Assembly (NCBI GenBank): GCA_041310935.1
Contig: JBFYWS010000621.1
Span: 1 to 60,469, forward strand
Direction of reading: 5' to 3'
Length of the DNA stretch: 60,469 nucleotides
Source: Desulfobacteraceae bacterium
GTDB lineage: Bacteria > Desulfobacterota > Desulfobacteria > Desulfobacterales > SpSt-501
The first letter of the stretch is position 1, and the number at the start of each line of letters is the position of its first letter. Both the position numbers and the translations under genes were made by a program. Positions 122 through 39,699 of the stretch are shown piece by piece. Below the pieces are notes generated by a model that was not told the DNA's origin, searched no databases, and was given only the letters and a program-made list of their open reading frames with translations.

Positions 122-3100
122 GCCGGAAGTCCGTCGTAGACACCTCGATGGTAGCTGACAGCCCAATCCTTGCGAAGTCGTAGACCGCCACGCTCGGCCC
201 CGGTGTCGTAACCAGCACCTTGCGAAAACTCGCGGATGTCGTCTGAATTGACGTTTTTGAAGAATGTATCTGCGCTGACTTCCTCGGAAGAATCAAGCAT
301 CGCGTGGATTCGTTCCGCATCGGACCCGACGCAACTTGTCGCGTACTGGTAGCCTCCATCTCGCCTGACTTTCGCATCAATGTCTGCCCACGTTCTATGG
401 GATGTGGGATACTTGTCGGTTGGGTTCCATGACTGTCGAACCCTCGCCGCCTGCCCGTCGCCGCTCTCCACCGCGGCCTTGACCAACTCGTCGGCGTCGT
501 CGAACCGGCCGCCCCATGTGCCCTCAGCCGCGAACGGCACGGCGCGGGTCTCGTCGGACAGCGTGGCGTCGAACGCCTCGCGGGTTACGCCGCGGGGCTG
601 GGAACCGAGAAGGTCTGACGTGGAGAACTGCACGTTCTGCCTGAAACTCAGGTCTCGCACAGCCCTCGCTCTGTCGTCCGCCTTGTCGGGGTCGTACTTC
701 TCGACCTCGATCCCGTGCCGCTTGAGAATGGCGAACGTCTGCGGACTGGCATCGCTGGGCACCACGGCGCCCGTGAACTCCTGCAACTGAACGACGCGCT
801 GCGGCTTGGCCTCGAAGTATTCCGTCGGCATCGCCTTCAACTCGTCCGTGAACTGCCGAATCTCTTCCCAAGGCATCTGGTCGTAGTCGAAGCCGTATTC
901 CTTCAGCTTGGCTCGTGGCGTGCGGGAGCGCATGGCGTCGATGACGGCGTTCCAGAATGTTTCGCTGTATCCGAATGATTCGGAATTGTTCTCATAGGCG
1001 GACCTGCCACTGTTGGCGATCTCTTGCAGTCTCGCGTTTGCGCCCTGCTTGTCCTCGTCCATCCCAGATTTCAGTTTGCCGCGGTCGGACTGAATCTGCG
1101 CCAGCGTCCGGTACTGCCGGCTACCGATGGCGGCCCGCACGCTCCCGGCCCCGTAGAAAAACCCCTCGCCTTCCTTGGATCGGATGGCCTTGCGCAGTTC
1201 CTTCATCACGTAGTCGAGCGTGTAGGGGGCATACCGCTTGTTCCCGGCGTTCGTGAACCCCTTGAAAATCTTGCGCTCGACGAACGGGCCGAATGTGGCG
1301 TCCACCCAGGACTCGAACTCGGACTTGTGCTCGGCGATGAACGACCGCAGGGCCTCGCGCCCATCAACCTCGTCGGTGTTGCGAAAGACTTGCCCGTACC
1401 GCGTACCGGCGAAGTAGGCGCCCAACCCCAGGTCACGGTACAGGTCTTCAATGCCATGGTCCCTGAACTGTCCCGCCGCCTCAAGATGGCTATGCAGCCC
1501 GTAGAGCACGCTGCGGATGTGGTAGTCTTCCTTGTTGAGCGAGTCGCTTCGCATGTCGCCGTAGGTGGCCTGCACCCATGCCTCAATCGGCTTCCACACG
1601 GCATCAGCGCCCTTCGTCATCAGGTGAGTCGCGGATGGGTAGCGCGGGCTATACTGATCGGCGTTCGCCACGCGCATGCTGCGGTCAACCTTGGGGTCCA
1701 CCAGCTCCGGGCGTCCGATGAGCGTGATTTCACCAAAGCCTTCGTAGGGCGCTTCCGCGTTCGCCACCCCGAGGGAAGGCATGGCGAGCCCGCCCATCTC
1801 TTCGGCGAACGCAAGGTTCTTCGCTGACAGGTTGTGCATGGCGACCAGCGGAGGATTCGCTTCAGTCTCCCCCCGTGCCGCCAGCTTCCTCGGCATCACC
1901 ACGCCCTTAGCGGTCCCGTCATCGTTCGCAACCGTGATGGGCGAAAGCTCGTCCGTCAGGCCGATCTCAACCGTCTCTGAGTCCCCGGCTTTCAGAGTGT
2001 CCATCAGGTAGTCGGGGTTGAACGCGGCGGTCAGCGTATCGCCCCCGAACGCGACCTTCTCCGCGACGGGGACGGTGCGCTCCATCGTGTACTGCGGGCG
2101 ATTGCCGCTGGTCTTGACGACGATTTCCTTGCTGGATACGTCGAGATGAACGGACTCGTTTTTTCCGTACTCCGGATCGCCAGCGACGTAGGGCCTCACG
2201 TCGGCGAGTGCCTGGCCCAGCGCCTTGCGGCTGACGCGCAGCTTTATCTTCTGGCCGGCGGGGTCGGGGATGACCTGGCGGAAGTTGGGGTAGGTGCCCT
2301 CGATCAGTTTGGTGCGCAGCGTGATGTTGCCGTCGGTGATCTCGGCTATGTCGTTGCGAACCTTGATTTCATTGCCGTTGCCATCAACTTCCTTCGCCGT
2401 CGTCGTTCCCACTCTCACCGTCACTGGTCCCGCCCCGTTGCTCTGAAGCAGCAGATTTACGGCCTGCGGGCGCAGGATCATCTGCACGGACTCGCCGCCC
2501 TTGGGAGCCGCAACCGTCCCCGCTGTGGCAACGTGCAGCCGCCTTCCGTCCGTGCCGACGAGCGAGACTGCGCCGTCCTTGGCGACCTCCAACAACACGC
2601 TGTTCAACACGTAGCGGGACTGGTCCGTGCTCTGCGCCGCTTGAACGGCCAGCAGACCAGCCTTGAGCGCCTGGGCTTGGGCACCGCTGAACTTGAAGGT
2701 CTCCGTGGCCTTGCCGATGTTCATGGGGTCGGGGAACTCGTCGGGGGATTCCTCGGCCTCAACCCATGCGTTGCCGCGGGCTTCCCACAGACCATCGGCC
2801 TGCTCAGTGGGGGCGGATACCTCGTTCTCCAGGTCCGTTGTTCGGCCGATACCGCCCTTGGCGTGCATCCTGGTAAGAACCGGCAGGTTGCTGCCCTTCG
2901 GTGCGGCGGCCCGCAGAATGTCCTCGCCCTTGGCGGGCTTGCCCTTCAGTGTGTCGGGTTCCCACGCCTCAACAGCCTTCGGCGTCGTGTCGGGAGCCTT
3001 TGGCGTTTCCTCGATGGCGGACTCGAACATGGCGGCGCGGGCGGTCTTGTCCTCTGCACCTACGCCCTGCACCATGCCGAACGACAACCTGGCGCTGGTC

Positions 3101-6100: not shown

Positions 6101-9100
6101 GAGATGTCGGCCTCGTCCAGCGCCCCGCTCATCCCATCGGGCATGTTGTCGGCGGCAAACTCGACAACCTGTTTCTCGGCGGTGAGTCCCTTGTCCTTGT
6201 CCTGGGCAACGAAGATTTGGCCGCGGGCCTCGTAGTTGGCCTCGATCTCGGCCTGCATTTCCTCGTACCGGCCCACGGCCTTGGCAATGCCGTCCTCGTC
6301 CTGCATGTCGGCAACGGCGTCCCCGATCTTCTCGCCTTCTACGATCATGCGGGTCATGTCCAGCCAAGTCTCGTGGTTCATGCCCTCGGCGTACCGGGCC
6401 AGCGTCTCGAAGGCGTCGTCGCCGTACTTCTGGCGCAGGCGCGTCTCGCGGGAGTTCAGGCGGCCTTGCAGGGCCACGGTCTCGGGGGTGATGGCGGAGC
6501 CGGTCGGGGTCTGGCGGGCGGCGGGGGCAGGTGGCGGGGGGGGCAGGGGGAATGGAGTCGGAACTGTGCCTTCGTCTGGTCTTGGCATCCAATCCTTGCC
6601 TCGATACGCCAGGCGTACAGCGTTGGGAATGTCCTCGCCACGATTTACCGCCCCACGCATCGCCTGTTCATGCGATATGCGCAGTGCCCGTTCATCGGAA
6701 GCCGTTGTCCGTTGTCCATTACGTTCCCGAACGGCCTTCATAGTTTGGACATACTCATGTGGTGTCTGCGCCCATTCTGGCAGTGCTGGCGCCGGGGCCT
6801 CTTCAGCAGGGGCGGCTGGTGCGGCGGCAGCAGGCTCCTTTGCCGCCATGACCGTCTTGAGCGGGTACTTGTCACTGACGTTCTCGCCCTTGGAATTGAC
6901 TACCCGCACAGATTTGTACGGGCCGCTGCCTTTGAGTGTTCCCGCGTCCTGAGCACGCACCTTAGCCGTCTTCCCGTCCTTGGTCTTGGCCTCGATCCAT
7001 AGGTCAGGCAGGCCCCGCCTTGACGGGGGTGGCTTCAGCAGGCCACGGTGAGCCGCTTCGGCCAAGGTTATCGAAACCGCCTTAGCCGTGGCCGATGGTG
7101 TTTGGGGGGCCTCTGGGGGGGACTGTGGCGCTCTAGGAATGGCCGGAGGCGGGGGGGGAGCTACTCTGATACCCCCCGGAGCGCCATTGGGCGGGGTTCT
7201 CGCATCTCTCTGCCCGGCCTCGTAGGCGGCGCGTTCTTCGTAGGAAATGGACATCCCGCCTTCGTGCATCGGGGTGCCCTTGCCAGACTTTCCGGCGTTG
7301 TAGAGTTCTCTGAACCACGGTTCTGCTGATTGGAGTTGGTCATGGCTCAGGTTCCCGCGTGGGCTTGTCATGTCGGACAGCCATTTCTTCCACACCTTCT
7401 TCCCTTCTTTGCCTACCCCGGATAGCTTATACTCTGTCTCTGCCTTCCGGTTGGCTTCATGGCGTGCCTTTTCGCGTTCGTTGTGGGCAGTCATCTCGTC
7501 GAGATAACCAGGAGAACCGGGTCCTGTAGGAGTAACAACGGGAGTCACAGCCGCCTGCCCCTCGCCGCCCGACGCTGGCGGGGGCGTAGCAGGGGCGGTC
7601 TCCGCTTCCGCCCCGCGCCCTTTCGTCTGTCGATAATGGTCTCTCCGCAGGTTGATTGTGGCCAAGTCCCATTCAAGACTTGCGATGGTCTTCTTCAACT
7701 CGGCTTGGTCATCCGCCCATGCCGGATCATCTCCTATCGCCTCAAGTTCATCCTGAGCCCTTTTGAGTGCCGGATACAGTTCCTTGGAACGACGGGTCAC
7801 GTAAGCATCGGCAGATTCGCCTGGAAGAACGCGAGATGCATCGCCCGGCGCTGGCCCCTCGCCGCCATCTTCGCCTCTCTCCCCAAGTCTTTGCTGCAAC
7901 TCCTTCTCGATCTGCGCCAGTTCGTCCTGCTCGGCTTGCGTCAGGTTGAGTGCTCCAGCCGCTTCCGGGCCTTTTTCCGCAGCCGGGACTTCCACGGGCT
8001 TGCTACCGGCTTCTCCCCCACCCGCACCGGCAGCTTCCGCAGATGGGGCGTTGCCGCCAGGAACTCCCGGTACACCTTGGGGTGCTTGTGTTTCAGATAC
8101 GCCGCCTGAGCCAACGACCGGAGCGGTGCCATGTTCGGCCTCCTTGGGTTGAGTAAGTGCAGGCCCCGCGACCGCGCCTGCTTCCGTAGTCGAGGGGGGT
8201 TCCCTCGTAGGCTCAGCGGCCTTCGTTGGTTTGGTTGGCGCGGGTGTTGGAGCCTGCAAATCTGGTGCCGCGATCAGGCCACGCCGGACGCGGGCGGGTA
8301 ACTGGGCGGCTTCTTTGAAGTAGCGGTCCCTAACCGCGGGACTCGCTCGGTCAAGGTTCACGTTCTCAGACCGGGCTATGATCTTCGCTACCTGCTCGAC
8401 TTCGTAGCGGAGTTGCGCGGTGGTGGGCGGGGCGGCGCGTTGCTCCTCGATGCTTGGGCCTTCCTCTGGGATCGAGGCTTTGAGAGCACGTTTCGGCTTC
8501 GCCTTGGCTATATCTGCAACTGGCTTCTGCCTCCTGACAAGAAACTGCCGTCCATCGGGCAGCGTCTCAACCTGAACTCCGTGCCCTGCCAAATACGCGA
8601 CATCTTCGGATGAGATGATACGGTTTGGCGGAAGCGGCAAACCGGGTCCTGACAACCCTTCGTGGAGTTCTGGCCTGATCTCGTCAGCCGTCTTCGTTTC
8701 CGTCTCTATCGCCTTGCGCACGACGGCATCAGCCGTCATTCTGGCGGCAGCGGTCGCCGCTCCCGGCGCTTGCAGTATGAGCATTGGCCCAATGGATTGG
8801 ACGCCAGCCTCAACAACATCCATGGCGCTGTACTTCATTTCTTCTGGCAGGTTGGAGGCATTGATCTGCCCGTCGATGTACTTTGCGGTAAGGCGCGTCG
8901 TTTCCTGAACCGCCTCTTGCAGCACTTCCTCGCCGACCTCTTGCCCCGTCCGTAGTAAAACCATGCCGCCGAGCCTGAGAAGGCTTCGCAAGAAAGTCTG
9001 TTTTGCCACGTCCTTCGCTCTGCGCCCAAGGCCGGGGATGATCTTATCAACCTGCGAGTACTCGATCAGCGCATACGGCAGTCCGGCGTAAGGCGCGAGC

Positions 9101-10005
9101 TTGGCGGCAGTATCGTGCGACACGCCCGAATTACGCATGGCGCGGTATATGGCGCCCGTGCCCTGGCGGAACCAATACGTTGCGCTGCCCACCGTCATCC
9201 CCATCGAGGCCGCTACGGGAACGGTAATCACTTCCTCCGGCAGCAACACCTGCGGGCCAGCCTGTCCGGCCGCTGCGGCAATGCCGGCAAACCCCATACC
9301 ATACAGGGCACCTTCCTTCTTGCCTCTGAGCATCGCCGGGGCCATGCGTACTGCTCCCAGGATGGAGTTCCAAATCCAGTTCTTGCTCTCTTGCGGAGGG
9401 GCAAGTTCAGCCTTGGACCGCAACTTGTCAGCCTTGTCGGGCGGTATCAATCCAGTTGCAGCCTGAAAATCGAGTTCGTCGAGTGCCGCCTGCTGATCGC
9501 CTTGTTGATAGGCTTGCGCCAATTCTTGTATCCAAGGCGGCCGATCATCTGGCGGCTTTGGTGGTTCAGTTTGGGTGGTTGAGGCGGGCGTTGGAGCAAT
9601 GCTAAACGACGGAACCACGTTAGTCTTTTGCGGCATGACGAACGATGCGGGGCCGACTTCGCCAACCGTCTTGCGTGCCGCCTTTGCCGCCTGCTCCCGC
9701 TGCTGAATGACGGGCGTAATGAGCGCCGCCGGCTGACTGACTCCCACGGACTGCGGAGTCGTGGGGGCGGATACATCCACGCTTCTCAGGGCTGCGCTTG
9801 GTGTTGGGACAACAGGCGGAGGCTTGGGCGTCATCTGCAACTCGGCATCGCTGAGCTGACGGACTGGCTCAACAGCCGGGGCCGATTCAACTGCCGGCGA
9901 TTCATCTGCTTCGAGAAGGTAGTCGAACCTTCCGGTCCGCTTGGGACGCTCAGAGGTTGCGGCAGGCGCAGCCTCAGTATCCAGGAGATAACTAAACCTG
10001 CCCAT
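1..10005 (-). CDS. N-terminal 3,335 codons of a giant ORF of about 4,893 aa (candidate polyvalent virion/ejected protein). It leaves the left edge and continues at 60348 through the circular junction.
   Basis: ATG at 10005-10003, with GAGG 9 nt upstream and an in-frame stop at 10021-10023. I read every plus-strand triplet starting at 1, 4, 7... from 1 to 10020 and found no tta, cta or tca. The frame (coordinate mod 3 = 1) matches ORF 55672..60462. The track omits it because no stop lies on this side of the window. Confidence 0.9.
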   Translation of the reverse strand, partial: MGRFSYLLDTEAAPAATSERPKRTGRFDYLLEADESPAVESAPAVEPVRQLSDAELQMTPKPPPVVPTPSAALRSVDVSAPTTPQSVGVSQPAALITPVIQQREQAAKAARKTVGEVGPASFVMPQKTNVVPSFSIAPTPASTTQTEPPKPPDDRPPWIQELAQAYQQGDQQAALDELDFQAATGLIPPDKADKLRSKAELAPPQESKNWIWNSILGAVRMAPAMLRGKKEGALYGMGFAGIAAAAGQAGPQVLLPEEVITVPVAASMGMTVGSATYWFRQGTGAIYRAMRNSGVSHDTAAKLAPYAGLPYALIEYSQVDKIIPGLGRRAKDVAKQTFLRSLLRLGGMVLLRTGQEVGEEVLQEAVQETTRLTAKYIDGQINASNLPEEMKYSAMDVVEAGVQSIGPMLILQAPGAATAAARMTADAVVRKAIETETKTADEIRPELHEGLSGPGLPLPPNRIISSEDVAYLAGHGVQVETLPDGRQFLVRRQKPVADIAKAKPKRALKASIPEEGPSIEEQRAAPPTTAQLRYEVEQVAKIIARSENVNLDRASPAVRDRYFKEAAQLPARVRRGLIAAPDLQAPTPAPTKPTKAAEPTREPPSTTEAGAVAGPALTQPKEAEHGTAPVVGSGGVSETQAPQGVPGVPGGNAPSAEAAGAGGGEAGSKPVEVPAAEKGPEAAGALNLTQAEQDELAQIEKELQQRLGERGEDGGEGPAPGDASRVLPGESADAYVTRRSKELYPALKRAQDELEAIGDDPAWADDQAELKKTIASLEWDLATINLRRDHYRQTKGRGAEAETAPATPPPASGGEGQAAVTPVVTPTGPGSPGYLDEMTAHNEREKARHEANRKAETEYKLSGVGKEGKKVWKKWLSDMTSPRGNLSHDQLQSAEPWFRELYNAGKSGKGTPMHEGGMSISYEERAAYEAGQRDARTPPNGAPGGIRVAPPPPPAIPRAPQSPPEAPQTPSATAKAVSITLAEAAHRGLLKPPPSRRGLPDLWIEAKTKDGKTAKVRAQDAGTLKGSGPYKSVRVVNSKGENVSDKYPLKTVMAAKEPAAAAPAAPAEEAPAPALPEWAQTPHEYVQTMKAVRERNGQRTTASDERALRISHEQAMRGAVNRGEDIPNAVRLAYRGKDWMPRPDEGTVPTPFPLPPPPPAPAARQTPTGSAITPETVALQGRLNSRETRLRQKYGDDAFETLARYAEGMNHETWLDMTRMIVEGEKIGDAVADMQDEDGIAKAVGRYEEMQAEIEANYEARGQIFVAQDKDKGLTAEKQVVEFAADNMPDGMSGALDEADISQDNPVLGTIENKEGDTRDVYHVTGYSKTKVGGIRVYGRLAYLETGTAKDGTTEAWLVEVENDKDVKWASPDAELIGKGEFDRVGEGNKGVEAVDAEREAKIAAILDAADAQDRARFVPVPRGDYWVRMMAREGTTVGERFPTEDALKADIDRAVARKRAEFSAELAKMPADRIQSQYDYWVKPEAPTAEAPAPTTKSPVPVADAKLTTEAEIRERLASVRRQREELNSSRTAPADYDKKQSRIAKLTEREGLLTEQLRTVLKAEAPKATKLEALKAKVAAKSAEGSPEQKFARNMAKYGADQLENDAAYKLTDEGDGTFGLEYTSPDRKTRKMLYQNYPSRDAAIKDAVEHAFRGATPEASKPKPGAPVATPAIPSDIPSVEEARKAMTEADTVTATLRMAMEKAGIEAATYAKENDLLATKRGRFVGMNRYVDPSGRIKKSAPKAKVTEYQRLVKLAREAEAVFENHLREVEQPAKRQLERARYATVARDEKAPEVSRLMARAAILGPQRDAKSGLMTTDAADALQAQAEVAAEPMARELYPDATDEEVKALAPNIARNADFDAREGKPLTIERLREAARLDQSLQMMAQRRRRIHDAYKAAELPVPEVSEPTAKQADDLIADIPRLTAEAEAAEKASDEKIEKEAKAKAAEQAKFDAEARATADKGRAFATAWKPPFRGATHPVEALGKVANPKNTLPILGMVAVKDGVASASDLDATVQAPVDLPDGIYRRLPGSNVLIIEQGPEGLEEFPYGFAKLEKPVTVKLADGREFMQALKAAQAAASSDETRYALMNVWVSKVNDGAVAVSASDGRRLVSTTVSADVSAVPDGWAVGLNPSAVTALLADPHGESLTIEAGQPEVKETGTTPGAVRFSNGNTTVTARLPDVAKPDFAPLLSQATAETLTVDRKAFNKALAKLKKMAGKVREGVVVGISSEHGTLTLTTKDRNGKTFSESLDVEVSAGRQAQGMVSVVMPRQETGLARDAYFMPYLSDAAKAGTSARLSFGMVQGVGAEDKTARAAMFESAIEETPKAPDTTPKAVEAWEPDTLKGKPAKGEDILRAAAPKGSNLPVLTRMHAKGGIGRTTDLENEVSAPTEQADGLWEARGNAWVEAEESPDEFPDPMNIGKATETFKFSGAQAQALKAGLLAVQAAQSTDQSRYVLNSVLLEVAKDGAVSLVGTDGRRLHVATAGTVAAPKGGESVQMILRPQAVNLLLQSNGAGPVTVRVGTTTAKEVDGNGNEIKVRNDIAEITDGNITLRTKLIEGTYPNFRQVIPDPAGQKIKLRVSRKALGQALADVRPYVAGDPEYGKNESVHLDVSSKEIVVKTSGNRPQYTMERTVPVAEKVAFGGDTLTAAFNPDYLMDTLKAGDSETVEIGLTDELSPITVANDDGTAKGVVMPRKLAARGETEANPPLVAMHNLSAKNLAFAEEMGGLAMPSLGVANAEAPYEGFGEITLIGRPELVDPKVDRSMRVANADQYSPRYPSATHLMTKGADAVWKPIEAWVQATYGDMRSDSLNKEDYHIRSVLYGLHSHLEAAGQFRDHGIEDLYRDLGLGAYFAGTRYGQVFRNTDEVDGREALRSFIAEHKSEFESWVDATFGPFVERKIFKGFTNAGNKRYAPYTLDYVMKELRKAIRSKEGEGFFYGAGSVRAAIGSRQYRTLAQIQSDRGKLKSGMDEDKQGANARLQEIANSGRSAYENNSESFGYSETFWNAVIDAMRSRTPRAKLKEYGFDYDQMPWEEIRQFTDELKAMPTEYFEAKPQRVVQLQEFTGAVVPSDASPQTFAILKRHGIEVEKYDPDKADDRARAVRDLSFRQNVQFSTSDLLGSQPRGVTREAFDATLSDETRAVPFAAEGTWGGRFDDADELVKAAVESGDGQAARVRQSWNPTDKYPTSHRTWADIDAKVRRDGGYQYATSCVGSDAERIHAMLDSSEEVSADTFFKNVNSDDIREFSQGAGYDTGAERGGLRLRKDWAVSYHRGVYDGLPAYFMQHSAIEYIYTATEELRVADPIPAPRFHRSRNGQVRAV
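1300..1860 (-). other. Conserved module inside the giant ORF (PPLVAMHNLSAKNLAFAEEMGGLAMPSLGV...GFGEITLIGRPELVDP), of a kind recurrent in large phage/plasmid polyvalent proteins. I cannot recall the family name.
   Basis: Hand translation of lines 1681-1860 and recollection of the HN(L/I)S...GG(L)xxPS(I/L)(A/G)(V/I) pattern in polyvalent proteins. The extent is approximate. Confidence 0.3.
1882..2925 (-). other. DnaN (beta sliding clamp)-like module B of the giant ORF (about residues 2361-2708)
   Basis: Hand-translated motifs: SNLPVLTRMHAKGGIGRTTDLENEV, DEFPDP, STDQSRYVLNSVLLEVAKDGAVSLVGTDGRRLHVA, RTKLIEGTYPNFRQVIP, AAFNPDYLMDTLK, GVVMPRKL. They match the DnaN hallmarks TLPIL, ATDGHRLA, (I/V)(D/E)GxYPxYxxV(I/L)P, FNxxYLxDxL and MPxR(L/I). 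Confidence 0.75.
3079..4053 (-). other. DnaN (beta sliding clamp)-like module A of the giant ORF (about residues 1985-2309)
   Basis: Hand-translated motifs: HPVEALGKVANPKNTLPILGMVAVKDGVASASDLDATVQ, EEFPYG, SSDETRYALMNVWVSKVNDGAVAVSASDGRRLVS, and a third domain (LTVDRKAFNKALAKL...GTLTLTTKD...YFMPYLSDAAK...ARLSF). The domain order matches a three-domain DnaN, but it is more diverged than module B. Confidence 0.65.
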
Positions 10006-30958: not shown

Positions 30959-31238
30959 TTACAAGCTCATTGCGTTTTCCGTGGGCAGAGGCACCCGTTA
31001 CGTCTGACTTACCCTTTACGGCGCGAAGGACACACCTAGATTTTGTGCGCGTCAACATCTTTTTCACCTTCGCCAACCCTTTTTTCGCACCCTTGCGAGC
31101 GTCTATCCATCTGCACGCCCATCCGGCAGCGAGGACGCCATCTCCAATCATCACAAACCAGCGCCATCCATTCAGCGAACGCCGGATGATCGTGTGCGTG
31201 ATTGCTGGCAAGCGGCATCCCCTTCGTCCATGAGGCTC

Positions 31239-32762
31239 TCAGAACGTCTCGTACTTCACCGTCAGCGGCCTGCGTTGTCCACGCTGTATAAGCCGGTCGT
31301 GGAACTGCGCGAACACCATGAACGCCGAGGCGCCGTGCGAATGCCGATCATGCAGCGGCCTGTCCTTCCAGACGCCGTGCCGCCGATCCCATTCCTTCCG
31401 GTAGCATTCCATGTGCTCTATGCCCAGAGCGCAGTTTGCCTTGTCGAAGCAGCACCGCGGCAAGATCATCCTGGCCGACTCGACGGCATCCGCAATGGAG
31501 CGCGGACGCTCCACGTACTCGAAGGTTATGCCGTGCTGCGCGGCAGTCTGCCGCTTCGTCCTGGCGGTAAACGCATCGCGGGTGTTGATGTCGTGCGGGC
31601 CAACGTGCCGCCCGTAGCGCCGGCCCCACGGCTTCGCTTTCATCACGTCGATGTAGTGCAAGAGGCCCTCGCCGCTGTTCTCGTAGAAGTCGATCATGTT
31701 CACCATGTTGCCGGTCGTCTGCGAGAACCAAATGCTCATTTCGTCGTTGATGCCGATGTCCCACCACGTATCCACCATGTACCGCGGATCGTATGCGTAG
31801 CGCCCTATGCGCCCGGTTTTGGCCGCCTCGTTCATCGCCTTGGAGAAGTAGGCGCCTTCCATGCTCGCCTCGAAGGCTTCCTCGGCCACGCTTGGGTAGT
31901 TCGAGCGCATGAACTCGCCCTGCTCGTCAGCCGTCACCACGTACCACGCCTTCTGCTCCCGCGTGAGTTTGACGCCGTGCTTCACCGCAAGCGCATCGAA
32001 GTACTCATCCAGGTACTTGGGAATGATGACTTCCGCATCCAGCACCTTGGTGTCGTCCTCCCACCAGCCGAAAAAGTGGAAGCGGTAGTCCAGGTCGTTT
32101 TCAGGGCGAACCTTGGCCGCGATCTCCGCGTTGGCCTTCTGCGCCCGCTGCACCATTTCGTAAAAAACGCCGGTCGTTCCCGCCGCGGTAGACTCGATGA
32201 ACACGTAGGTCGACGCCGTGCGGACAGTCGGCAGCGTGCCGGAGACGAACTCTTCAGCCTTCTCGGGGGCCGTCTTGCTCATGGGGCCAAGCTCGGAAGA
32301 GTGAATAACCTGGTAGGTGCCAGAACGCAGGCCAACGTCCACCCTGATGACGCTGCCGTTGGCAAACACCAGTTCCGTTTGACTGCCCTGTGTGCCGGCG
32401 GCCAGAGGTATCCGCACTTCCGGTATGCGGTAGTTGTCGTAGCCGTAGCGGATATGGTCTCTGAAAATGTCCTTGGCCTTTTCCTCGGTGTGCGCCGTGA
32501 TGCCGACGTTGATTCCAGGGTTGTGCATGGCAAGATCAAGCTCGAACAGACAGAGCAGCGTCGTGAACCCGATGCCCCTAGGCTTCAAGATCACGTTGCG
32601 GTTCTTCATGGCCCAATAGAACTTCTCCTGGATGGGGTTCGTCTTGAAGACGACGCCCTCGCCACCCTCCCTCGGCTTGACGAGGTAAAGGTTGTTGATG
32701 CGCCACGCCGGGTTGTCAAACTCGGCGGCCAGCACCTTGATGTCTACAGCGGAGTCAGTCAC
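31239..32762 (-). CDS. terL: Terminase large subunit
   Basis: ILKPRGIGFTT (Walker A-like), VIHSSE, WWDIGINDEMSIW and HGASAF nuclease-domain motifs. GTG start with AAGGAG 8 nt upstream. Confidence 0.9.
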   Translation of the reverse strand: MTDSAVDIKVLAAEFDNPAWRINNLYLVKPREGGEGVVFKTNPIQEKFYWAMKNRNVILKPRGIGFTTLLCLFELDLAMHNPGINVGITAHTEEKAKDIFRDHIRYGYDNYRIPEVRIPLAAGTQGSQTELVFANGSVIRVDVGLRSGTYQVIHSSELGPMSKTAPEKAEEFVSGTLPTVRTASTYVFIESTAAGTTGVFYEMVQRAQKANAEIAAKVRPENDLDYRFHFFGWWEDDTKVLDAEVIIPKYLDEYFDALAVKHGVKLTREQKAWYVVTADEQGEFMRSNYPSVAEEAFEASMEGAYFSKAMNEAAKTGRIGRYAYDPRYMVDTWWDIGINDEMSIWFSQTTGNMVNMIDFYENSGEGLLHYIDVMKAKPWGRRYGRHVGPHDINTRDAFTARTKRQTAAQHGITFEYVERPRSIADAVESARMILPRCCFDKANCALGIEHMECYRKEWDRRHGVWKDRPLHDRHSHGASAFMVFAQFHDRLIQRGQRRPLTVKYETF

Positions 32763-33592
32763 AGATCACTCCTTCACTGGGCAGCGCGTACCCTCTTGTT
32801 GGGGCTACAGAACAGGCCGCACCTATCCTGCGCCAGTTTCGCGTACTCCGGGTTCAACTCGACCAGGATGCAGTCCCGTCCGTTGCTGGCGGCTACCTCG
32901 CCGGTTGTGCCACTGCCGCCGAAGGGGTCAAGGACTGTGCCCGGCTTCGTCGCGCCGTTGCAGGAGCAGGTCGGGCGGTGGCCGATAGTGCGGGACGTGT
33001 CAGCATCGAGGGCGCGCCATCCGGGTTGGTGCGACGACCTACCTCGAGGCGTGCATGTGTGCCCTATTGCCAGCCGTGATGGGTTGATCGTTTTCGCCCG
33101 CCCGCCAGGTTCCTTCTCCGTGACCCGTTCCCACGGCTTCCCGCACACCGCGCAGACCTTCGACGGGCATCCTGCCAGGATGCAGGGCCGGATCAGGGCA
33201 GGCGGAAATGTGGCGAAGTGGGCCTCGCGGTAGGGTGCGGTCGGGACCGTCCAGACGGAGCGGCGGTTGCGGGTAGCGTATGTCGCGCTTCCGGGGCGAA
33301 TCCCCGCCACATCTCCCGTAGGCATTCTCTTCTGTTCGGGAGCCGACCTTGCCTTTCTGTCGTCGTCCGGGTACACGCTCGGCTCAGAAATAGCCTCCGC
33401 GTCGTAGTAGTACCGCGCCGACTTCGACAGCAAGAACAGGTACTCATGGGACTTGGTGCATCGGTCGGTAACGGACTCCGGCATCGGGTTCGGTTTGGCC
33501 CAGATGATGTCCTGCCGCAGATACCAGCCGTCGGCCTGCAACGCAAACGCCACGCGCCAGGGGATGCCTACCAGGTCTTTGGGTTTGAGGTG

Positions 33593-33621
33593 TTGACTCC
33601 ATCCGGCGTCCGTGGTACATT
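33593..33621 (+). promoter_or_regulatory. Sigma70-like promoter of the HNH cassette (TTGACT, 17 nt, TACATT)
   Basis: TTGACT at 33593-33598, TACATT at 33616-33621, AGGAGG at 33637-33642, ATG at 33649. Confidence 0.5.
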
Positions 33622-33648
33622 CTGGATGAACTATACAGGAGGTGTCCG

Positions 33649-34161
33649 ATGAAACGCGAAGCGAACAACTCTCGGAAGTGCATCGAATGTGGCGCGGAGG
33701 TTCCGCGCAAGGTGAAGCGGTGCTCGCCGTGCAACTCGGCTTTTCTGTTGCGGCGTCCGACGTACCAGCGAACCGATGAGCACAAGGAATTGATGAGCGA
33801 ACGGTTGACAGGTCAGCCCCACACATGGCGCAGCGCCAGCGAGACGCCGGAAGTTGCGGCGAAGATTCGGGCGTGGTGGACTCCTGAACGCAGAAGCGCG
33901 AAGTCCGAGGCGATTGCGAATCGCGGTCGTTATCACGGACTGTCTCACGGAAGGCGAAAGCAGATGGTTGCGGAAGCCGGGAAGTGCTCTCGCTGCGGGA
34001 CCGCAACACGCCGACTAGACACCCATCACAAAGACAGGGATACTCGCAATCAAAGCCCGGCGAATCTGGAAGTGCTGTGCCATCGGTGCCACATGCAGGA
34101 GCATCGGGCCGAGATTGGATGGGCGGCGTACCACAAGGCGCGCGGGACGGGCAAGCGGTAG
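33649..34161 (+). CDS. HNH homing endonuclease (N-terminal zinc ribbon, NUMOD3-like repeats, C-terminal HNH)
   Basis: CIECGAEVPRKVKRCSPCN; TDEHKELMSERLTG / TPEVAAKIRAWW; CSRCGTATRRLDTHHKDRDTRNQSPANLEVLCHRCHMQEH. Confidence 0.85.
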   Translation: MKREANNSRKCIECGAEVPRKVKRCSPCNSAFLLRRPTYQRTDEHKELMSERLTGQPHTWRSASETPEVAAKIRAWWTPERRSAKSEAIANRGRYHGLSHGRRKQMVAEAGKCSRCGTATRRLDTHHKDRDTRNQSPANLEVLCHRCHMQEHRAEIGWAAYHKARGTGKR

Positions 34162-34690
34162 ACCCTCGGCATGTTCGTTGCTTCGGGCCTGCTGAATCCG
34201 TTGCCTTTCTTTGTCCGGGTTGCGACATGAAACTATCGCCTATGTTCAAAAACAGAACGCCGTCCGGCCTCAGCAATCTCCGCACCTCACGGAACACGGC
34301 GACCAGGTTGACGACATAGGCTTCGGGCGTGGGTTCAAGTCCGATCTGGGCGTCAATGCGACGGGCGCCGCACTTGCGACACACACTCGCGTCAACACCG
34401 GGACGCTGGCCGGTAGTGATTGCGCCCGGAGCTTTGCTGTCCTGCACCTGTCCGCCCACCGAATGCTCGCACCCCGCATCCCCGCCTTCCCACGTCGCTG
34501 TTCCGTAGTCTCTGAGGCCGCATGTTACCAGTATGGCGGACTCGTCACTACGCAGTTGACGCTACAGTCAGGCAAGGTTTTCAGGACTTGCCTACAATCC
34601 CCGGTGAGGATTGTCACCATACTTTTACCCTCCTTTCTGGTTGATGAGTTTGAACAAGCGCCTTCAGACTACGCCGCTATCGCGGCGCGT

Positions 34691-34852
34691 CTAATGCGCG
34701 GTGTTGGCTTCATCATGTTCTCGCCCAAGTATTCCGATCACCACAAGCAGGTCATCGCGATCCATTTCGCCGACACGCATTCCGTCGATCACGGATGTTT
34801 CAGCTTCTTGCTTCAGCTTCTCGGCATCCAGCCATTCGATCATCATCTTCAC
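34691..34852 (-). CDS. Small hypothetical protein (53 aa)
   Basis: GTG at 34852, 6 nt after AAGGAGG (34865-34859). Overlaps the 3' end of the Lar-like ORF. Confidence 0.45.
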   Translation of the reverse strand: MKMMIEWLDAEKLKQEAETSVIDGMRVGEMDRDDLLVVIGILGREHDEANTAH

Positions 34853-35105
34853 GACAATCCTCCTTGGCCTGTACTCTGCGGTTCCATTTCGCGGCAGCCT
34901 CCGCCCGGTCCTCACATGGCGCAGTGTTCAGGTCGCAGCCGAGGCACGCCACCATCCAGTCACACGGCCCCACTTCGTCGTGTAACTTGGCCTCTCCCCC
35001 ACAACACGGACAGGCCAACAAAGGAATCGAGCGCGACGGCTCACCCGCCGCCGCTTCATGCCCGCAAGTGGGGCACCTGGTAAGTCCGCAGTTGTGTTCC
35101 GTCAC
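34800..35105 (-). CDS. Lar-family restriction-alleviation-like protein
   Basis: LLACPCCGGEAKLHDEVGPCDWMVACLGCDL...EDRAEAAAKWNRR matches the Lar CPxCG...C..C...eAi..WNrR pattern. GTG start after GGAG. Confidence 0.6.
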   Translation of the reverse strand: MTEHNCGLTRCPTCGHEAAAGEPSRSIPLLACPCCGGEAKLHDEVGPCDWMVACLGCDLNTAPCEDRAEAAAKWNRRVQAKEDCREDDDRMAGCREAEARS

Positions 35106-35995: not shown

Positions 35996-37338
35996 CTCTC
36001 CACCGTGCATGACTGCCATCCTTTCTTGCCCGGCGCGTCAGCCGGGGCGTTCGGCCATTCCCTTCGCTTCCACTCCTTCCGCTTGTCGAAGAAGCACGGC
36101 GACTCTGCCGCCAGCGCGTCAATCCATGCGTCGTCACAGGGACGGGCCTTCGGGCCGGTTTCTGGGCCGGCAATCACGAGATCCAGGTACGCCCCTTGAT
36201 GATGTCCCAAATCGTCTGGTACGCGACCCCGTGCTCGCGCGCTAGTGTCGCAATCATTCGTCCATGCCGCGTCTTCATGTCTCGCATGATGTACTCCGCA
36301 TAGGTTCTGATTCGCTCCACGTCTTTCGCGGTCAACTTGCTCTGGCAGTTCTTCTCGCCGTTCTGATCGGCGGCCTTGCCGACTTTCAGAACTCTGACCG
36401 CATGAATGTTGTTCTGCGAGTAGGTAACTGCCTCCAAGTTGTCCGGGTGATTGTCGTCCTTGATCCCGTTCTTGTGATTGATCGTCATCCCGTGTGGTAT
36501 CGTCCCGACTAGCGCCATGTAGACAATCCTGTGCGCCCCTATGTGATGCCTCTGTCCGCGAATCATCATTCGCACCTGAAGGTATCCCTGCGGCATCCTG
36601 TGTTCCGCTCGTTTCGGGGCAATGCTCCTCACCAGTACCCGTTCTTTGCTCCATCGGTTTCCGCTTCTGTTGGTGCAGCGCCATATCGCCCCCGATTGAT
36701 CCACCCTCAACTCTCCGCGCCGTATCGCTGCCATAATCTCCGCCTCGCCCGCATGGTTGGTTTTCATAGCGTGGCATACTACCAGGGCACAGGAACCGAG
36801 TCAACGTAATTTTTTCGAGCAATGGTTCGCACGATACGAACCGCACCGCTGCCGGGATGCTCAACAGGATCGGTATTCGCTCTTCGGCTCGCGCCTGGTT
36901 CTCGACCGTCACGCCCAGCCACACGTTCGACCACGCGATAGGGCCTCCCGCTTTCGTGCATCGCTTGAAAAACTCTGCCATTTGTTGCGGACGCTTCGTC
37001 AGCACGAGGTATGTATGCGGACTCGGTTGGAGTAGGTCGGGGTGCATGGCGTTGAATATCTGCATGATGGTCTCATCCTGCAAAGACTCATGGAACAGGT
37101 CCGACATGGGCGCGACGAACACCCGGCAGGGCTTGCGCGTGTGCGCGGGCATGTCGAGGTTCTCCGGCAGGAAGTGCGGCTCGCCCCACGGCGGCAGGCC
37201 CATGTATTTGGCGAAGCGATGATGCCAGGATGCGGCGTAACAGTTCATGCACCCCTCGCTTGCGGCCGAACATCCGCGCAGGATCGGCCATTGCTGGTCT
37301 GCCCAGGGTATGTCTGTTTTCGGAAGACTTTTGTTCAT
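35992..37338 (-). CDS. Phage Gp37/Gp68-family (DUF5131) protein gene, interrupted by an HNH cassette of about 610 bp but still open in frame
   Basis: ATG at 37338. DIPWADQQWPILRGCSAASEGCMNCYA...VFVAPMSDLFHE...LVLTKRP...NVWLGVTVENQ...RFVSCEPLLEKITL, then about 200 aa of junk read-through, then LDLVIAGPETGPKARP...CFFDKRKEW. The first 72 codons of track ORF 35992..37554 look spurious. Confidence 0.75.
   Translation of the reverse strand: MNKSLPKTDIPWADQQWPILRGCSAASEGCMNCYAASWHHRFAKYMGLPPWGEPHFLPENLDMPAHTRKPCRVFVAPMSDLFHESLQDETIMQIFNAMHPDLLQPSPHTYLVLTKRPQQMAEFFKRCTKAGGPIAWSNVWLGVTVENQARAEERIPILLSIPAAVRFVSCEPLLEKITLTRFLCPGSMPRYENQPCGRGGDYGSDTARRVEGGSIGGDMALHQQKRKPMEQRTGTGEEHCPETSGTQDAAGIPSGANDDSRTEASHRGAQDCLHGASRDDTTRDDDQSQERDQGRQSPGQLGGSYLLAEQHSCGQSSESRQGRRSERREELPEQVDRERRGANQNLCGVHHARHEDAAWTNDCDTSARARGRVPDDLGHHQGAYLDLVIAGPETGPKARPCDDAWIDALAAESPCFFDKRKEWKRREWPNAPADAPGKKGWQSCTVER
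36174..36767 (-). CDS. HNH_3-type homing endonuclease with a C-terminal HTH-like tail
   Basis: GYLQVRMMIRGQRHHIGAHRIVYMALVGTIPHGMTINHKNGIKDDNHPDNLEAVTYSQNNIHA. Confidence 0.85.
   Translation of the reverse strand: MKTNHAGEAEIMAAIRRGELRVDQSGAIWRCTNRSGNRWSKERVLVRSIAPKRAEHRMPQGYLQVRMMIRGQRHHIGAHRIVYMALVGTIPHGMTINHKNGIKDDNHPDNLEAVTYSQNNIHAVRVLKVGKAADQNGEKNCQSKLTAKDVERIRTYAEYIMRDMKTRHGRMIATLAREHGVAYQTIWDIIKGRTWIS
36190..36805 (-). mobile_element. HNH homing-endonuclease cassette (own promoter, near-leaderless ORF) inserted in the Gp37/Gp68-family gene
   Basis: Family homology breaks after EPLLEKITL (about 36802) and resumes at LDLVIAG (about 36186). The interval is almost filled by the HNH ORF, in another frame of the same strand. 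Confidence 0.7.
36776..36804 (-). promoter_or_regulatory. Sigma70-like promoter (TTGACT, 17 nt, TAGTAT) driving the HNH ORF, with an upstream A-tract
   Basis: Minus strand: GAAAAAATTACG TTGACT cggttcctgtgccctgg TAGTAT gccacgct ATG. Confidence 0.5.
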
Positions 37339-38988: not shown

Positions 38989-39699
38989 TTATCCCTGACT
39001 CCGCGGGTTGTGCGTCAATGGCAGCCGCCCCTGCCGCAGTTCGTTTTCCAGCCGCGCCCGTGCCGTGGCGAAGTGCCCGGCGTCTATCTCGATCCCGATG
39101 AACTTGCGCCCGGTCCTGATGCACGCGATTCCCGTTGTGCCGCTGCCCATGTACGGGTCGAGCACGGTCGCGCCTTCCGGCACCTTAGCCCGATCCATCG
39201 TCCATTGCATGATTCCGACTGGCTTCTGTGTCGGGTGAAGCCTGTTCGATGATTCCCCGTTCATGGATGTGTCCCGGCGGCAGTAAACGCCGTGTCCGCC
39301 CTTCACCCATGCAAGCTCGGCGTCGGACAGGAACGTACCGAACGCCGGGTCAAGACGCTTGATCCAGACCAACGTTGTCCCCACCGGCACGCGGGCGGAG
39401 AAGTGGTTTCCACCCCACAGCCCCACCGAGGGGAAGTCCAGCCAAGGCGCAGGGTCGAACGCTTCGCGGTCGCCATGCACCGGCTTGAAATCGTTTCGCC
39501 CTTGGCGGCCACGCGCTTCTGGATTGTGCCCGCCAGTGAACCGGCGCGAGTTGACGTTCCAATCCATGCCGTATGGCGGATCGGAAATCACGGCATCGGC
39601 CTCAATCGGAAGGCACGCCCGGCAGTCGCCGAGGATGATGGTCACGGAATCGGAAAGACGCACAACGACTGGTTTCTGCCTATCCTTCTGTCTGTCCAT
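38989..39699 (-). CDS. DNA methyltransferase (N6-adenine/N4-cytosine, DPPY type), intact
   Basis: AVISDPPYG ... HPTQKPV ... VLDPYMGSGTTGIACIRTGRKFIGIEID. Confidence 0.85.
   Translation of the reverse strand: MDRQKDRQKPVVVRLSDSVTIILGDCRACLPIEADAVISDPPYGMDWNVNSRRFTGGHNPEARGRQGRNDFKPVHGDREAFDPAPWLDFPSVGLWGGNHFSARVPVGTTLVWIKRLDPAFGTFLSDAELAWVKGGHGVYCRRDTSMNGESSNRLHPTQKPVGIMQWTMDRAKVPEGATVLDPYMGSGTTGIACIRTGRKFIGIEIDAGHFATARARLENELRQGRLPLTHNPRSQG

Follow-up and report, generated by a model that had tools for sequence, protein, structure and literature searches.

A phage DNA methyltransferase gene with an antisense HNH endonuclease gene in its open frame and a stop-bearing insert of a recurrent class after its SPPYW motif

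We report a gene for a phage beta-class N4/N6 DNA methyltransferase (methylase) that has two separate interruptions, both of which appear to be tolerated. The gene lies on the minus strand of one whole contig of 60.5 kb (JBFYWS010000621.1, referred to here as the window), whose gene surroundings are phage-like. The first interruption is a complete HNH endonuclease gene on the opposite strand, within a segment through which the methylase frame stays open, and related loci share this arrangement. The second is an 8-nucleotide (nt) insert with a stop codon directly behind the catalytic SPPYW motif, which resembles short inserts found at the same junction in other methylases and may be bypassed by the ribosome. 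The whole study is a comparative sequence analysis.

An HNH gene lies antisense within an open methylase frame

The methylase ATG at 34620 is preceded by a ribosome-binding site (RBS), AAAGGAGGG, and the N-terminal reading (MVTILTGDCRQVLKTLPDCSVNCVVTSPPYW) runs from MVTILTGDC to VVTSPPYW before a TAA at 34527-34525; a sequence-only reading of this DNA had named these elements, and all of them are present on the minus strand. Behind the TAA, the methylase continues in another frame that is open for 581 codons, from GGC at 34519-34517 to a stop at 32774. In Pfam searches, this long open reading frame (ORF) matched PF01555 (N6_N4_Mtase) in three stretches with an E value of 7.5e-34. When rebuilt without the extra segment, the methylase is 425 amino acids (aa) long and aligns over 96 to 99% with intact homologues of 420 to 450 aa. 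Thus, the extra segment sits in a variable loop between LNxGDS[FY] and LKPKDLxGIPW (Table 1). Read on the minus strand, the segment encodes a peptide of ~192 aa that is rich in Cys, Ser, Pro, and Arg and has no predicted structure. Read on the plus strand, it holds the complete HNH gene, with the TTGACT-17-TACATT promoter and AGGAGG Shine-Dalgarno (SD) sequence that had been predicted for it, and this gene has 72 homologues in the protein collection.

DNA carrying members of the HNH family was taken from Joint Genome Institute (JGI) metagenomes and IMG/VR, and the methylase halves were located by tblastn. We counted the 107 loci that had hits to the HNH gene and to both the N part and the C part of the methylase; dereplication at 90% nucleotide identity reduced these to 76 clusters. 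In every one of the 107 loci, the HNH gene is antisense at the same methylase site, between two methylase halves that share one frame and phase, and the gap between the halves (426 to 687 nt) is always a multiple of three. The methylase parts are joined without a stop in 103 of the 107 loci, and the stops of the remaining four fall outside the insert. Among the 76 non-redundant loci, the HNH proteins are as little as 32% identical to that of the window, and GC contents span 0.40 to 0.68.

We found no methylase-frame stop inside the HNH ORF in any of these 76 loci, while over the same ORFs the two other antisense frames contain 204 and 646 stops and the two alternative sense frames contain 361 and 408. 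Synonymous shuffles of the same genes led us to expect 225 methylase-frame stops, and the product of the per-locus P values was ~1e-131 (summed log10 P of approximately -131), a combined value that overstates independence because the loci are phylogenetically related. The shuffle is conservative in another respect, since the codon usage of the HNH genes has already been shaped by stop avoidance. At the codon level, codons ending in TT, CT, or TC (for Phe, Leu, Ile, Val, Ser, Pro, Thr, and Ala) were used in 0 of 921 cases ahead of a codon starting with A, compared to 23 to 100% where the next codon does not start with A, so that the family yields a simple rule: no NTT, NCT, or NTC codon ahead of an A-starting codon. 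The HNH proteins also lack the corresponding dipeptides, with Phe followed by Ile, Met, Thr, Asn, or Lys found 0 times versus 8.8 expected and Ile followed by the same residues found 4 times, all encoded by ATA, versus 50 expected. Selection acting on the methylase frame thus extends to the amino acid sequence of the HNH protein. The HNH cassette has a length that is a multiple of three, and its codon choice and protein sequence avoid every combination that would create a methylase-frame stop.

The sequence-only reading had considered that the segment of ~190 aa might be a conserved insertion in homologues. In one sense this is so, but it is the HNH frame that is conserved: over the same 300 nt, mean pairwise amino acid identity is 54% when the DNA is read as HNH and 31% when it is read as methylase. 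When a read-through methylase (P0137, 581 aa) was modeled with AlphaFold, the core had a predicted local distance difference test (pLDDT) score above 90, while insert residues 141 to 294 scored 31 to 46 and formed no secondary structure. The methylase would be read straight through the cassette, which would form a disordered surface loop of ~190 aa and need only freedom from stops, and the nuclease would be made from its own promoter on the opposite strand.

Could the HNH ORF instead be spurious, an antisense frame left open because the DNA is GC-rich, and the insert a genuine methylase domain? Spurious long antisense ORFs do exist in the window, as illustrated by a 679-aa ORF at 31194-33233 on the plus strand that is antisense to the terminase gene and extends into the methylase. 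Since antisense frames of this length arise by chance in the 60%-GC window genome, the window alone is insufficient to establish read-through. We nevertheless consider an artefactual HNH gene to be close to inconceivable, because the 72 homologues have invariant HNH residues and zinc ligands, Pfam and PHROG profiles return HNH hits, and the promoter and start signals are conserved. The 54% versus 31% identity and a pLDDT of 89 for the HNH model versus 31 to 46 for the insert peptide also argue against it, as do members with GC contents down to 0.40 that keep both frames open.

A further alternative is that the insert is removed, either as an intein or as a group I or group II intron that carries an endonuclease gene on its opposite strand, in which case the open frame would be irrelevant. 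Endonuclease genes within host genes usually ride in introns or inteins, and this methylase family hosts true inteins (P0120 and L174). However, only ~60 nt of the insert lie outside the HNH ORF, and these are the promoter; Rfam returned no family in 32700-34750 at an E value of ≤1; and Pfam found PF01555 alone, with no Hint or intein domain. The insert end (...GWSQH/LKPKDL) has no His-Asn plus Cys/Ser/Thr signature, and an intron would not need stop-free frames in 76 of 76 loci or lengths that are constantly a multiple of three. We therefore regard removal of the insert as highly improbable.

Taken by itself, the window is a weak witness. As had been claimed, no stop breaks the methylase frame where it runs opposite the HNH gene, but 18% of synonymous shuffles of the window gene are likewise stop-free (P0 = 0.18), so that its open antisense frame is not beyond chance and the significance comes from the family. 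This is one of several points that count against the reading we prefer, in which the methylase is translated across the nested gene. The relatedness of the loci, noted above, is another. In addition, the nested loci were gathered through HNH similarity, so that loci with decayed HNH copies or broken methylases are under-sampled, and methylase expression could suffer from transcription that converges on it from the HNH promoter. With these points considered, we hold the nested antisense architecture itself to be secure and translation of the methylase through the insert to be very likely. Of the double disruption described in the sequence-only reading, the stop after SPPYW stands, while disruption by the HNH cassette does not, the insert being conserved, in frame, and stop-free in all of the counted loci. 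The judgment that it is unusual for a homing-endonuclease gene to lie antisense within its host ORF was borne out.

Few cases are known from prokaryotes and their viruses in which long protein-coding stretches overlap on opposite strands, and these cases are disputed. The ~76 diverged loci described here, in which both strands are open over 340 to 600 nt, are among the best comparative cases and have a codon-level signature. They add a route by which a selfish endonuclease can reside inside a living gene, besides introns, inteins, gene splitting, and same-strand overprinting.

Table 1. Positions of the methylase gene parts, the nested HNH gene, and neighboring genes in the window
Feature	Coordinates	Strand	Details
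Methylase ORF, part 1	34528..34620	-	ATG 34620 to Trp codon TGG 34530-34528; MVTILTGDC...VVTSPPYW, catalytic motif IV; N terminus aligns with intact homologues
8-nt insert TAACATGC	34520..34527	-	Between Trp and Gly codons; TAA 34527-34525, spacer CA, TGC 34522-34520 (putative landing codon)
Methylase ORF, part 2, N-lobe	34166..34519	-	From GGC 34519-34517; GLRDYGTATWEGG...LFLNIGDSF...KQRTCRGS
In-frame stop-free insert	33590..34165	-	Variable loop between LNxGDS[FY] and LKPKDLxGIPW; N-side boundary approximate
Methylase ORF, part 2, C-terminal portion	32774..33589	-	LKPKDLVGIPWRVAFALQADGWYLRQDIIWAKPNPMPES...LDPFGGSGTTG (motif I), to stop codon
HNH endonuclease gene	33649..34161	+	Antisense to methylase; 170 aa; stop TAG 34159-34161; profile hits, homologues, AF2 model
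HNH expression signals	33593..33648	+	-35 TTGACT 33593-98; 17-nt spacer; extended -10 TGgTACATT (TACATT 33616-21); SD AGGAGG 33637-42
Large terminase subunit gene			Directly downstream of methylase; PHROG 2
Lar-like restriction-alleviation gene	34800-35105	-
Second HNH endonuclease gene (HNH_3)	36174-36767	-	197 aa; PF13392, E = 1e-13; PHROG 59
Second beta-class methylase gene	38989-39699	-	Compact, intact; 236 aa; SDPPYG...LDPYMGSGTTG

The nested HNH gene carries its own expression signals

The HNH protein has an N-terminal CxxC...CxxC zinc ribbon, helical repeats, and a C-terminal HH-N-CxxCH-H motif. In an alignment of 73 sequences, H126, H127, N139, C144, C147, H148, and H152 are invariant, and a WWTPERRE...RYHGLS region is well conserved. 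Profile searches of the 170-aa ORF against Pfam and PHROG gave HNH hits, and the AlphaFold (AF2) model built from the family alignment has a mean pLDDT of 89. The PDB, searched by sequence and by fold, yielded only weak HNH-domain matches (Cap5, Gme HNH nickase, McrA, PacI, and I-HmuI), showing that the catalytic core is generic and that the remainder of the protein has no close solved relative. A tblastn search with the window HNH against 50,697 phage records gave no match, and the family is known only from metagenomes and uncultivated virus genomes (UViGs).

The HNH expression signals in the window start 4 nt from the methylase LKPKDL codons. In related loci, the 20 to 75 nt from the LKPKDL codons to the HNH start contain an extended -10 element (TGnTAnnnT) in 32 of 74 cases versus 3.5 expected by shuffling. 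The ATG is located exactly 6 nt past the -10 element in 20 loci, a spacing that predicts a leaderless HNH mRNA; in other loci, the window included, a leader with an SD sequence stands ahead of the HNH gene. Together, these sequence features suggest that the antisense HNH gene has its own promoter and is often apparently leaderless.

Two loci (L023 and L024) encode short HNH forms with an M[ST]YERT... start, preceded in frame by a stop-interrupted remnant of the long-form zinc ribbon, and the -10 box of the short forms sits within this remnant. N-terminal truncation of long forms thus seems to have given rise to the short leaderless ones. We rejected these two loci as decayed HNH genes, because they contain intact short forms and the tblastn match had crossed a stop.

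The nuclease cassette is patchily distributed at a site that hosts other elements

The insert was found in 0 of 167 control methylase loci from IMG/VR. Divergence of the HNH protein was weakly correlated with that of the flanking methylase (Spearman rho, 0.24), and in one locus (L005) an HNH protein 76% identical to that of the window is accompanied by a methylase C-terminal region of different architecture. A rare and patchy insert with this weak correlation fits a homing endonuclease that moves between methylase backbones. The nuclease would cut insert-free methylase alleles near the conserved DNA encoding LKPKDLxGIPW, the cassette would then be copied in by recombinational repair, and the stop-free antisense frame would render the insertion nearly cost-free for the host phage. 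Two points speak against an active homing enzyme: the case for homing is drawn from distribution only, and our search for a closely related empty-site allele found none, the best flank identity being 78%. On balance, we consider an active homing HNH enzyme to be plausible and its presence the better-favored possibility.

The same site between LNLGDSY and LKPKDL hosts a second type of hidden nuclease. Within one methylase ORF (L151:1402-3309, P0104), an ORF of 173 aa that starts with GTG (L151:1958-2479, plus strand) lies on the same strand but out of frame and encodes an endonuclease-VII/HNH-like protein, and P0161 is similar. This protein matches annotated HNH genes of Arthrobacter and Synechococcus phages and not the ShiLan or Mantra nucleases discussed below, and the methylase frame is again open through it. 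At other conserved positions in this methylase family (P0132, P0144, L247, and L311), we observed in-frame LAGLIDADG domains with no intein splicing domain, located after ALQ and after LLSKA, which resemble the "lone LAGLIDADG" of phage Taj (PMC9957025). Since inteins (P0120 and L174), LAGLIDADG domains, and both same-strand and antisense HNH genes occur in one methylase family, this gene is a hotspot for such elements.

Short stop-bearing inserts recur at the SPPYW junction

Homologues of the window methylase read SPPY[WFY]GLRDYG with no residue between the Trp and Gly positions, and the window lesion is consequently an 8-nt insertion of TAACATGC (34527-34520) and not, as the sequence-only reading had proposed, the loss of one G. 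Nor does the other concern raised there, an assembly or homopolymer error, hold up: the stop after SPPYW is present in four Logan assemblies (SRR28346256, SRR28346252, SRR28346269, and SRR28346261), which align without gaps across the region. Such an error is unlikely because these assemblies are independent, come from different runs, and agree across the site.

Among the HNH-bearing loci, 62 unique junctions comprised 57 that are canonical, 4 with a stop insert, and 1 cut off at a contig end, and the four stop-insert loci are not each other's nearest relatives. For the four counted loci with a stop between the methylase parts, those of L045 (TGG-TGATGA-GGC), L075 (TGG-TAGTGG-GGC), and L039 (CCA-TAGCTG-TAT TGG GGT) fall at the SPPYW junction. 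The fourth exception, L056, has two TAA codons at ~2900 to 2925 (methylase orientation), in or next to the second catalytic motif, where it reads F V stop V G G S stop Y G and homologues read FVNLGDSYG. These TAA codons in the NLGDSY motif region are unlike the SPPYW inserts, and the first of them (GUU UAA GUA) lies between two Val codons.

We also scanned IMG/VR for 1 to 12 extra bases between ACTGG and the GLRDYG codons, with a pattern fixed on TACTGG that misses other codon variants. The scan returned 47 matches, 18 of them in SPPYW context. Three of the 18 are one methylase sequence on three contigs with an extra Gly codon, and the other 15, representing 13 deduplicated loci, are stop inserts. 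These 13 loci contain ten distinct inserts (TGATGA, TAAATGC, TAAATGG, TGAATGG, TAGCGTGC, TGACGTGG, TGATATGC, TGATTTGA, TAACTAAGG, and TAGCCATGC), so that with the window and L075 there are 12 distinct inserts of 6 to 9 nt from many different metagenomes. A scan of genome contigs for junction inserts was uninformative on frequency, with 2 matches in PPYW context among at least 121, neither of them a stop insert; a scan for canonical junctions gave at least 120 matches and provides no denominator for the frequency of stop inserts.

All 12 inserts place a stop codon directly after TGG, and all three stop codons occur among them. In 11 of the 12, the insert ends in TGG, TGC, or TGA directly before the Gly codon. 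The putative landing codon is UGG in L075, L164, L165, L170, L175, L184, and L198; UGC in L173, L174, L196, and L200, as in the window; UGA in L045, L160, and L189; and AGG in L168. By its sequence, the window insert is a member of a recurrent class with the form stop codon, 0 to 3 nt, and UGN. Those ORFs downstream of the inserts that are complete span 245 to 767 codons with methylase motifs, except in L189, where the ORF has 174 codons. One of these stop-insert methylases (L174) contains an intein, an element that can splice only once it has been translated. The downstream ORFs thus count against reading the inserts as marks of pseudogenes.

We also found that the 51 nt upstream of the junction are more structured in insert alleles than in 158 canonical alleles, with z scores of -2.0 versus +0.75 (Mann-Whitney p = 2e-5) and minimum free energies (MFE) of -16.3 versus -10.8, despite the lower GC content of the insert alleles. 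Approximately 8 of 15 insert alleles contain a long hairpin in which ...CCNCCATACTGG, the take-off Trp codon included, pairs with an upstream complementary segment. The 5' arm of this hairpin occurs at three different distances or registers, and the local protein sequence departs from the canonical KTLP; the three registers suggest convergence. Because the 5' arms stand at three registers, a single consensus hairpin cannot be assessed by covariation, and we used per-sequence duplex energies, by which a take-off-arm duplex of -15 kcal/mol or stronger is found in 33% of insert alleles and 1% of canonical alleles.

Methylases with the nested HNH gene escape routine annotation. Gene calling on two of the HNH-bearing loci (L001 and L005) cut the methylase to its C-terminal 222 to 259 aa and called the HNH gene separately. 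Since callers split or shorten these methylases, the architecture is hidden in protein databases unless the long ORF wins, as in P0137 and P0143, and the genes are mis-annotated as fragments or pseudogenes.

Ribosomes may hop over the SPPYW inserts

Inserts of 6, 7, 8, and 9 nt produce three different frame offsets, so that only a hop restores SPPYW-GLRDYG in all of them. In such a hop, the peptidyl-tRNA(Trp) would unpair at UGG before the stop, the ribosome would slide 6 to 9 nt and re-pair at UGG, UGC, or UGA, and translation would resume to give the canonical SPPYW-GLRDYG protein (VTSPPYWGLRDYG junction) at reduced yield. In many alleles, the forward slide would be driven by the upstream hairpin in which the take-off codon is paired; by analogy with what has been proposed for the 5' structure of T4 gene 60, the forming hairpin could pull the take-off codon out of the P site. 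The pattern of the inserts speaks for a translational hop as a form of recoding, or at the least for some site-specific process, and not for a random frameshift.

Three other recoding events were considered and rejected. Standard +1 or -1 frameshifting at TGG TAA has no slippery sequence to act on, and the shift required would differ between inserts of 6, 7, 8, and 9 nt. Re-initiation was dismissed because ATG or GTG codons within the inserts are never in frame with GLRDYG. Stop codon reassignment does not fit the occurrence of all three stops at this one site only.

The window copy is a poor example of its class, and three of its properties weigh against a hop there. It reads UGG, UAA, CA, UGC, GGC, so that the landing codon matches the take-off codon at two of three positions; its upstream region has no hairpin (duplex energy, -4.1 kcal/mol); and the intact second methylase at 38989-39699 could make loss of the first harmless. 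A window hop would have to cover 8 nt from UGG to UGC unaided by a hairpin. The imperfect landing codon and the missing hairpin imply that the window methylase may be made at a very low level or not at all. L173, L174, and L200 are like the window in having UGC and no hairpin, yet their downstream ORFs are intact. Judged from these sequence features, synthesis of some full-length methylase by a hop in the window phage seems to us nearly an even question, with the balance slightly toward doubt. A recent, real inactivation that the second methylase makes harmless seems less likely than such a hop, and the remaining share goes to variants such as an immunity insertion with negligible bypass.

The window methylase might instead have died recently, with the TAA insert ending synthesis after a 31-aa N-terminal peptide, the open frame a relic, and the second methylase compensating. 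Such a death would account for a stop and frame change with no canonical slippery site, for the imperfect landing codon, and for the lack of an upstream hairpin; with a P0 of 0.18, an open antisense frame could also persist unselected for some time, and the second methylase is intact. However, the insert is the sole lesion in front of a 581-codon open continuation, and the several lesions and lost constraint of a decaying pseudogene are not seen in the window. Random knockouts would be expected to be scattered along the gene and to be mostly substitutions or 1- to 2-nt indels, whereas like inserts recur at the identical junction in at least 12 variants, from many metagenomes and with complete downstream ORFs that are long and intact in all cases but one. 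Very recent inactivation of the window methylase is a live alternative, though we think it less likely than not.

A different view of the inserts is that they are DNA-level scars or immunity insertions, selected because they destroy the site of a homing endonuclease that would recognize the highly conserved DNA encoding SPPYWGLRDYG, with immunity as the cause and bypass as a consequence, and with the stop-plus-UGN structure being what makes the insertion tolerable. T4 provides a precedent in which an HNH enzyme (MobA) and a bypass insert form one mobile cassette (bioRxiv 10.1101/2022.08.31.505936). Large mobile inserts occur in 2 of 10 stop-insert methylases and in 2 of 102 with a canonical junction, a difference that is based on small numbers (Fisher p = 0.039) and hints at a link with endonucleases like that in T4, and 4 of the 62 HNH-bearing junctions have a stop insert. 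Both features meet in L200, with a stop insert and a same-strand hidden HNH gene, and in L174, with a stop insert and an intein. In contrast, most alleles carry only one of the two features, 57 of 62 HNH-bearing alleles are canonical at the junction, most stop-insert alleles had no endonuclease in or near the methylase that was detectable with a limited tblastn query panel, and no nuclease is known for the SPPYW site. We rate immunity insertion somewhat below recent death of the gene.

In the first of these two loci, the IMG/VR locus L200, the insert TGATATGC follows SPPYW, and a Mantra/ShiLan-type HNH hit (L200:7791-8258, minus strand) lies on the same strand as, and is enclosed by, a methylase ORF of 664 codons (7642-9642, minus strand). 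The intein-bearing L174 is from the same sample as L200 and has the similar insert TAGCGTGC.

Of the explanations weighed, we favor a transparent antisense HNH cassette combined with a bypass-class insert as the best overall, with modest confidence; this choice is based on sequence comparison. We put forward more tentatively, as something short of an even chance, the joint proposal that translationally transparent antisense homing endonucleases are widespread and that 6- to 9-nt bypassing in SPPYW is a new natural class. Under this tentative proposal, both strands would encode protein over ~500 nt, with nuclease codons and dipeptides shaped by the host frame, and the hop could throttle methylase synthesis or protect the site from an endonuclease. 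Natural hopping would, if bypass of the SPPYW inserts is real, be far commoner than the few known cases (T4 gene 60, the phiHau3 terminase, and one yeast mitochondrion) would suggest.

Relation to known hidden nucleases and bypass elements

The closest known case is the ShiLan domain (Gosselin et al. 2023; Arsenault, Gosselin & Gogarten 2025), a stop-free insertion in actinobacteriophage methylases that hides a same-strand HNH gene in the +3 frame, with a GTG start and no recognizable RBS (PMC9957025, PMC11855218). Read-through of the methylase has been proposed for it (PMC11855218), and how the hidden nuclease is translated was left open by its authors (PMC9957025, PMC11855218). The ShiLan and window systems both place an HNH gene within a phage methylase of the PF01555 family. 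In both, the inserted DNA has no methylase-frame stop and bears no mark of an intron or intein, predictions show its peptide as an excursion with little structure, and a patchy distribution suggests homing. In contrast to the ShiLan HNH gene, which is on the same strand and has no recognizable promoter, the HNH gene of the window family is on the opposite strand in all 107 loci and has its own promoter, which answers for the antisense form the question of expression left open for the ShiLan domain.

As a ShiLan-type example, we checked Mantra gp64 (L153), in which the HNH ORF (1036-1725, plus strand) is on the same strand as the methylase. Mantra gp64 belongs to a DPPYN-type PF01555 subfamily with the insert at a duplicated EPVVVARKP, so that both subfamily and site differ from those of the window methylase, and the ShiLan/Mantra HNH proteins have no similarity to the window HNH at the tblastn level. 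The opposite-strand arrangement is mentioned in neither ShiLan paper (PMC9957025, PMC11855218), and our literature search found no description of an antisense-nested form. The antisense, self-promoted form is a new variation on hidden-nuclease insertions, which themselves were first described only a few years ago.

Other systems share parts of this architecture. In the cyanobacterial dnaX intein, a homing endonuclease encoded out of frame is under purifying selection in its own frame (bioRxiv 10.64898/2026.09.14.751524), and its ORF, like the window HNH, overlaps translated host sequence in another frame. However, the dnaX case is on the same strand (+2 frame), with the overlapped peptide removed by self-splicing, whereas the window HNH is antisense. 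According to a preprint (bioRxiv 10.1101/2022.08.31.505936), the free-standing T4-like endonuclease MobE in nrdA creates genes in pieces. As described there, MobE in nrdA and the window both have a self-expressed endonuclease gene inside a conserved phage gene with no intron or intein, but nrdA is split into two reassembling polypeptides, while the window keeps a single uninterrupted host ORF over the HNH gene.

The same preprint, citing Bonocora et al. 2011, also describes T4 mobA and gene 60, where a free-standing HNH gene is associated with a 50-nt bypass gap that travels with MobA and protects against it. On that account, both T4 and the window have a phage gene with an HNH homing-endonuclease insertion and a short insert, untranslated in T4 and predicted to be so in the window. 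T4 gene 60 resembles the insert class in having a stop directly after the take-off codon, and its upstream mRNA structure and matching take-off and landing codons have counterparts in part of the class. The gap is 50 nt in T4 gene 60 and 6 to 9 nt in the methylases. Unlike mobA, the window HNH gene is nested antisense and in frame and does not split its host into two ORFs; and unlike the T4 cassette, its HNH insert and junction insert are ~360 nt apart and usually occur separately. In the methylases, bypass is putative, and the sequence case for it includes no nascent-peptide signal.

For the terminase of the Streptomyces phage phiHau3, bypass of 10-nt inserts has been proposed with some experimental support (PMC10732093). 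Like the methylase inserts, these are short blocks in a conserved phage gene with a stop or hard-to-decode codon after the take-off site and flanking structure. The phiHau3 trigger is a rare UUA codon in a terminase gene, and its proposed role is regulation of protein level, whereas the putative trigger in the methylases is a stop after Trp. We found no report in the literature of bypass in methylase genes.

Phage setting and other observations

The second HNH endonuclease gene of the window (Table 1) is unrelated to the nested HNH gene and lies ~1.5 kb upstream of the methylase start. By the T4 mobA/gene 60 precedent, it is a candidate for a nuclease that acts against SPPYW-coding DNA. The second methylase and the Lar-like gene place several anti-restriction functions near the packaging genes of the window phage.

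One JGI contig in the family set (JGI25616J43925_10000004; 105,714 nt) contains the HNH-in-methylase locus three times (L052, L054, and L055) at a spacing of 39,813 nt, and this contig is probably a phage genome of ~39.8 kb that was assembled as a concatemer.

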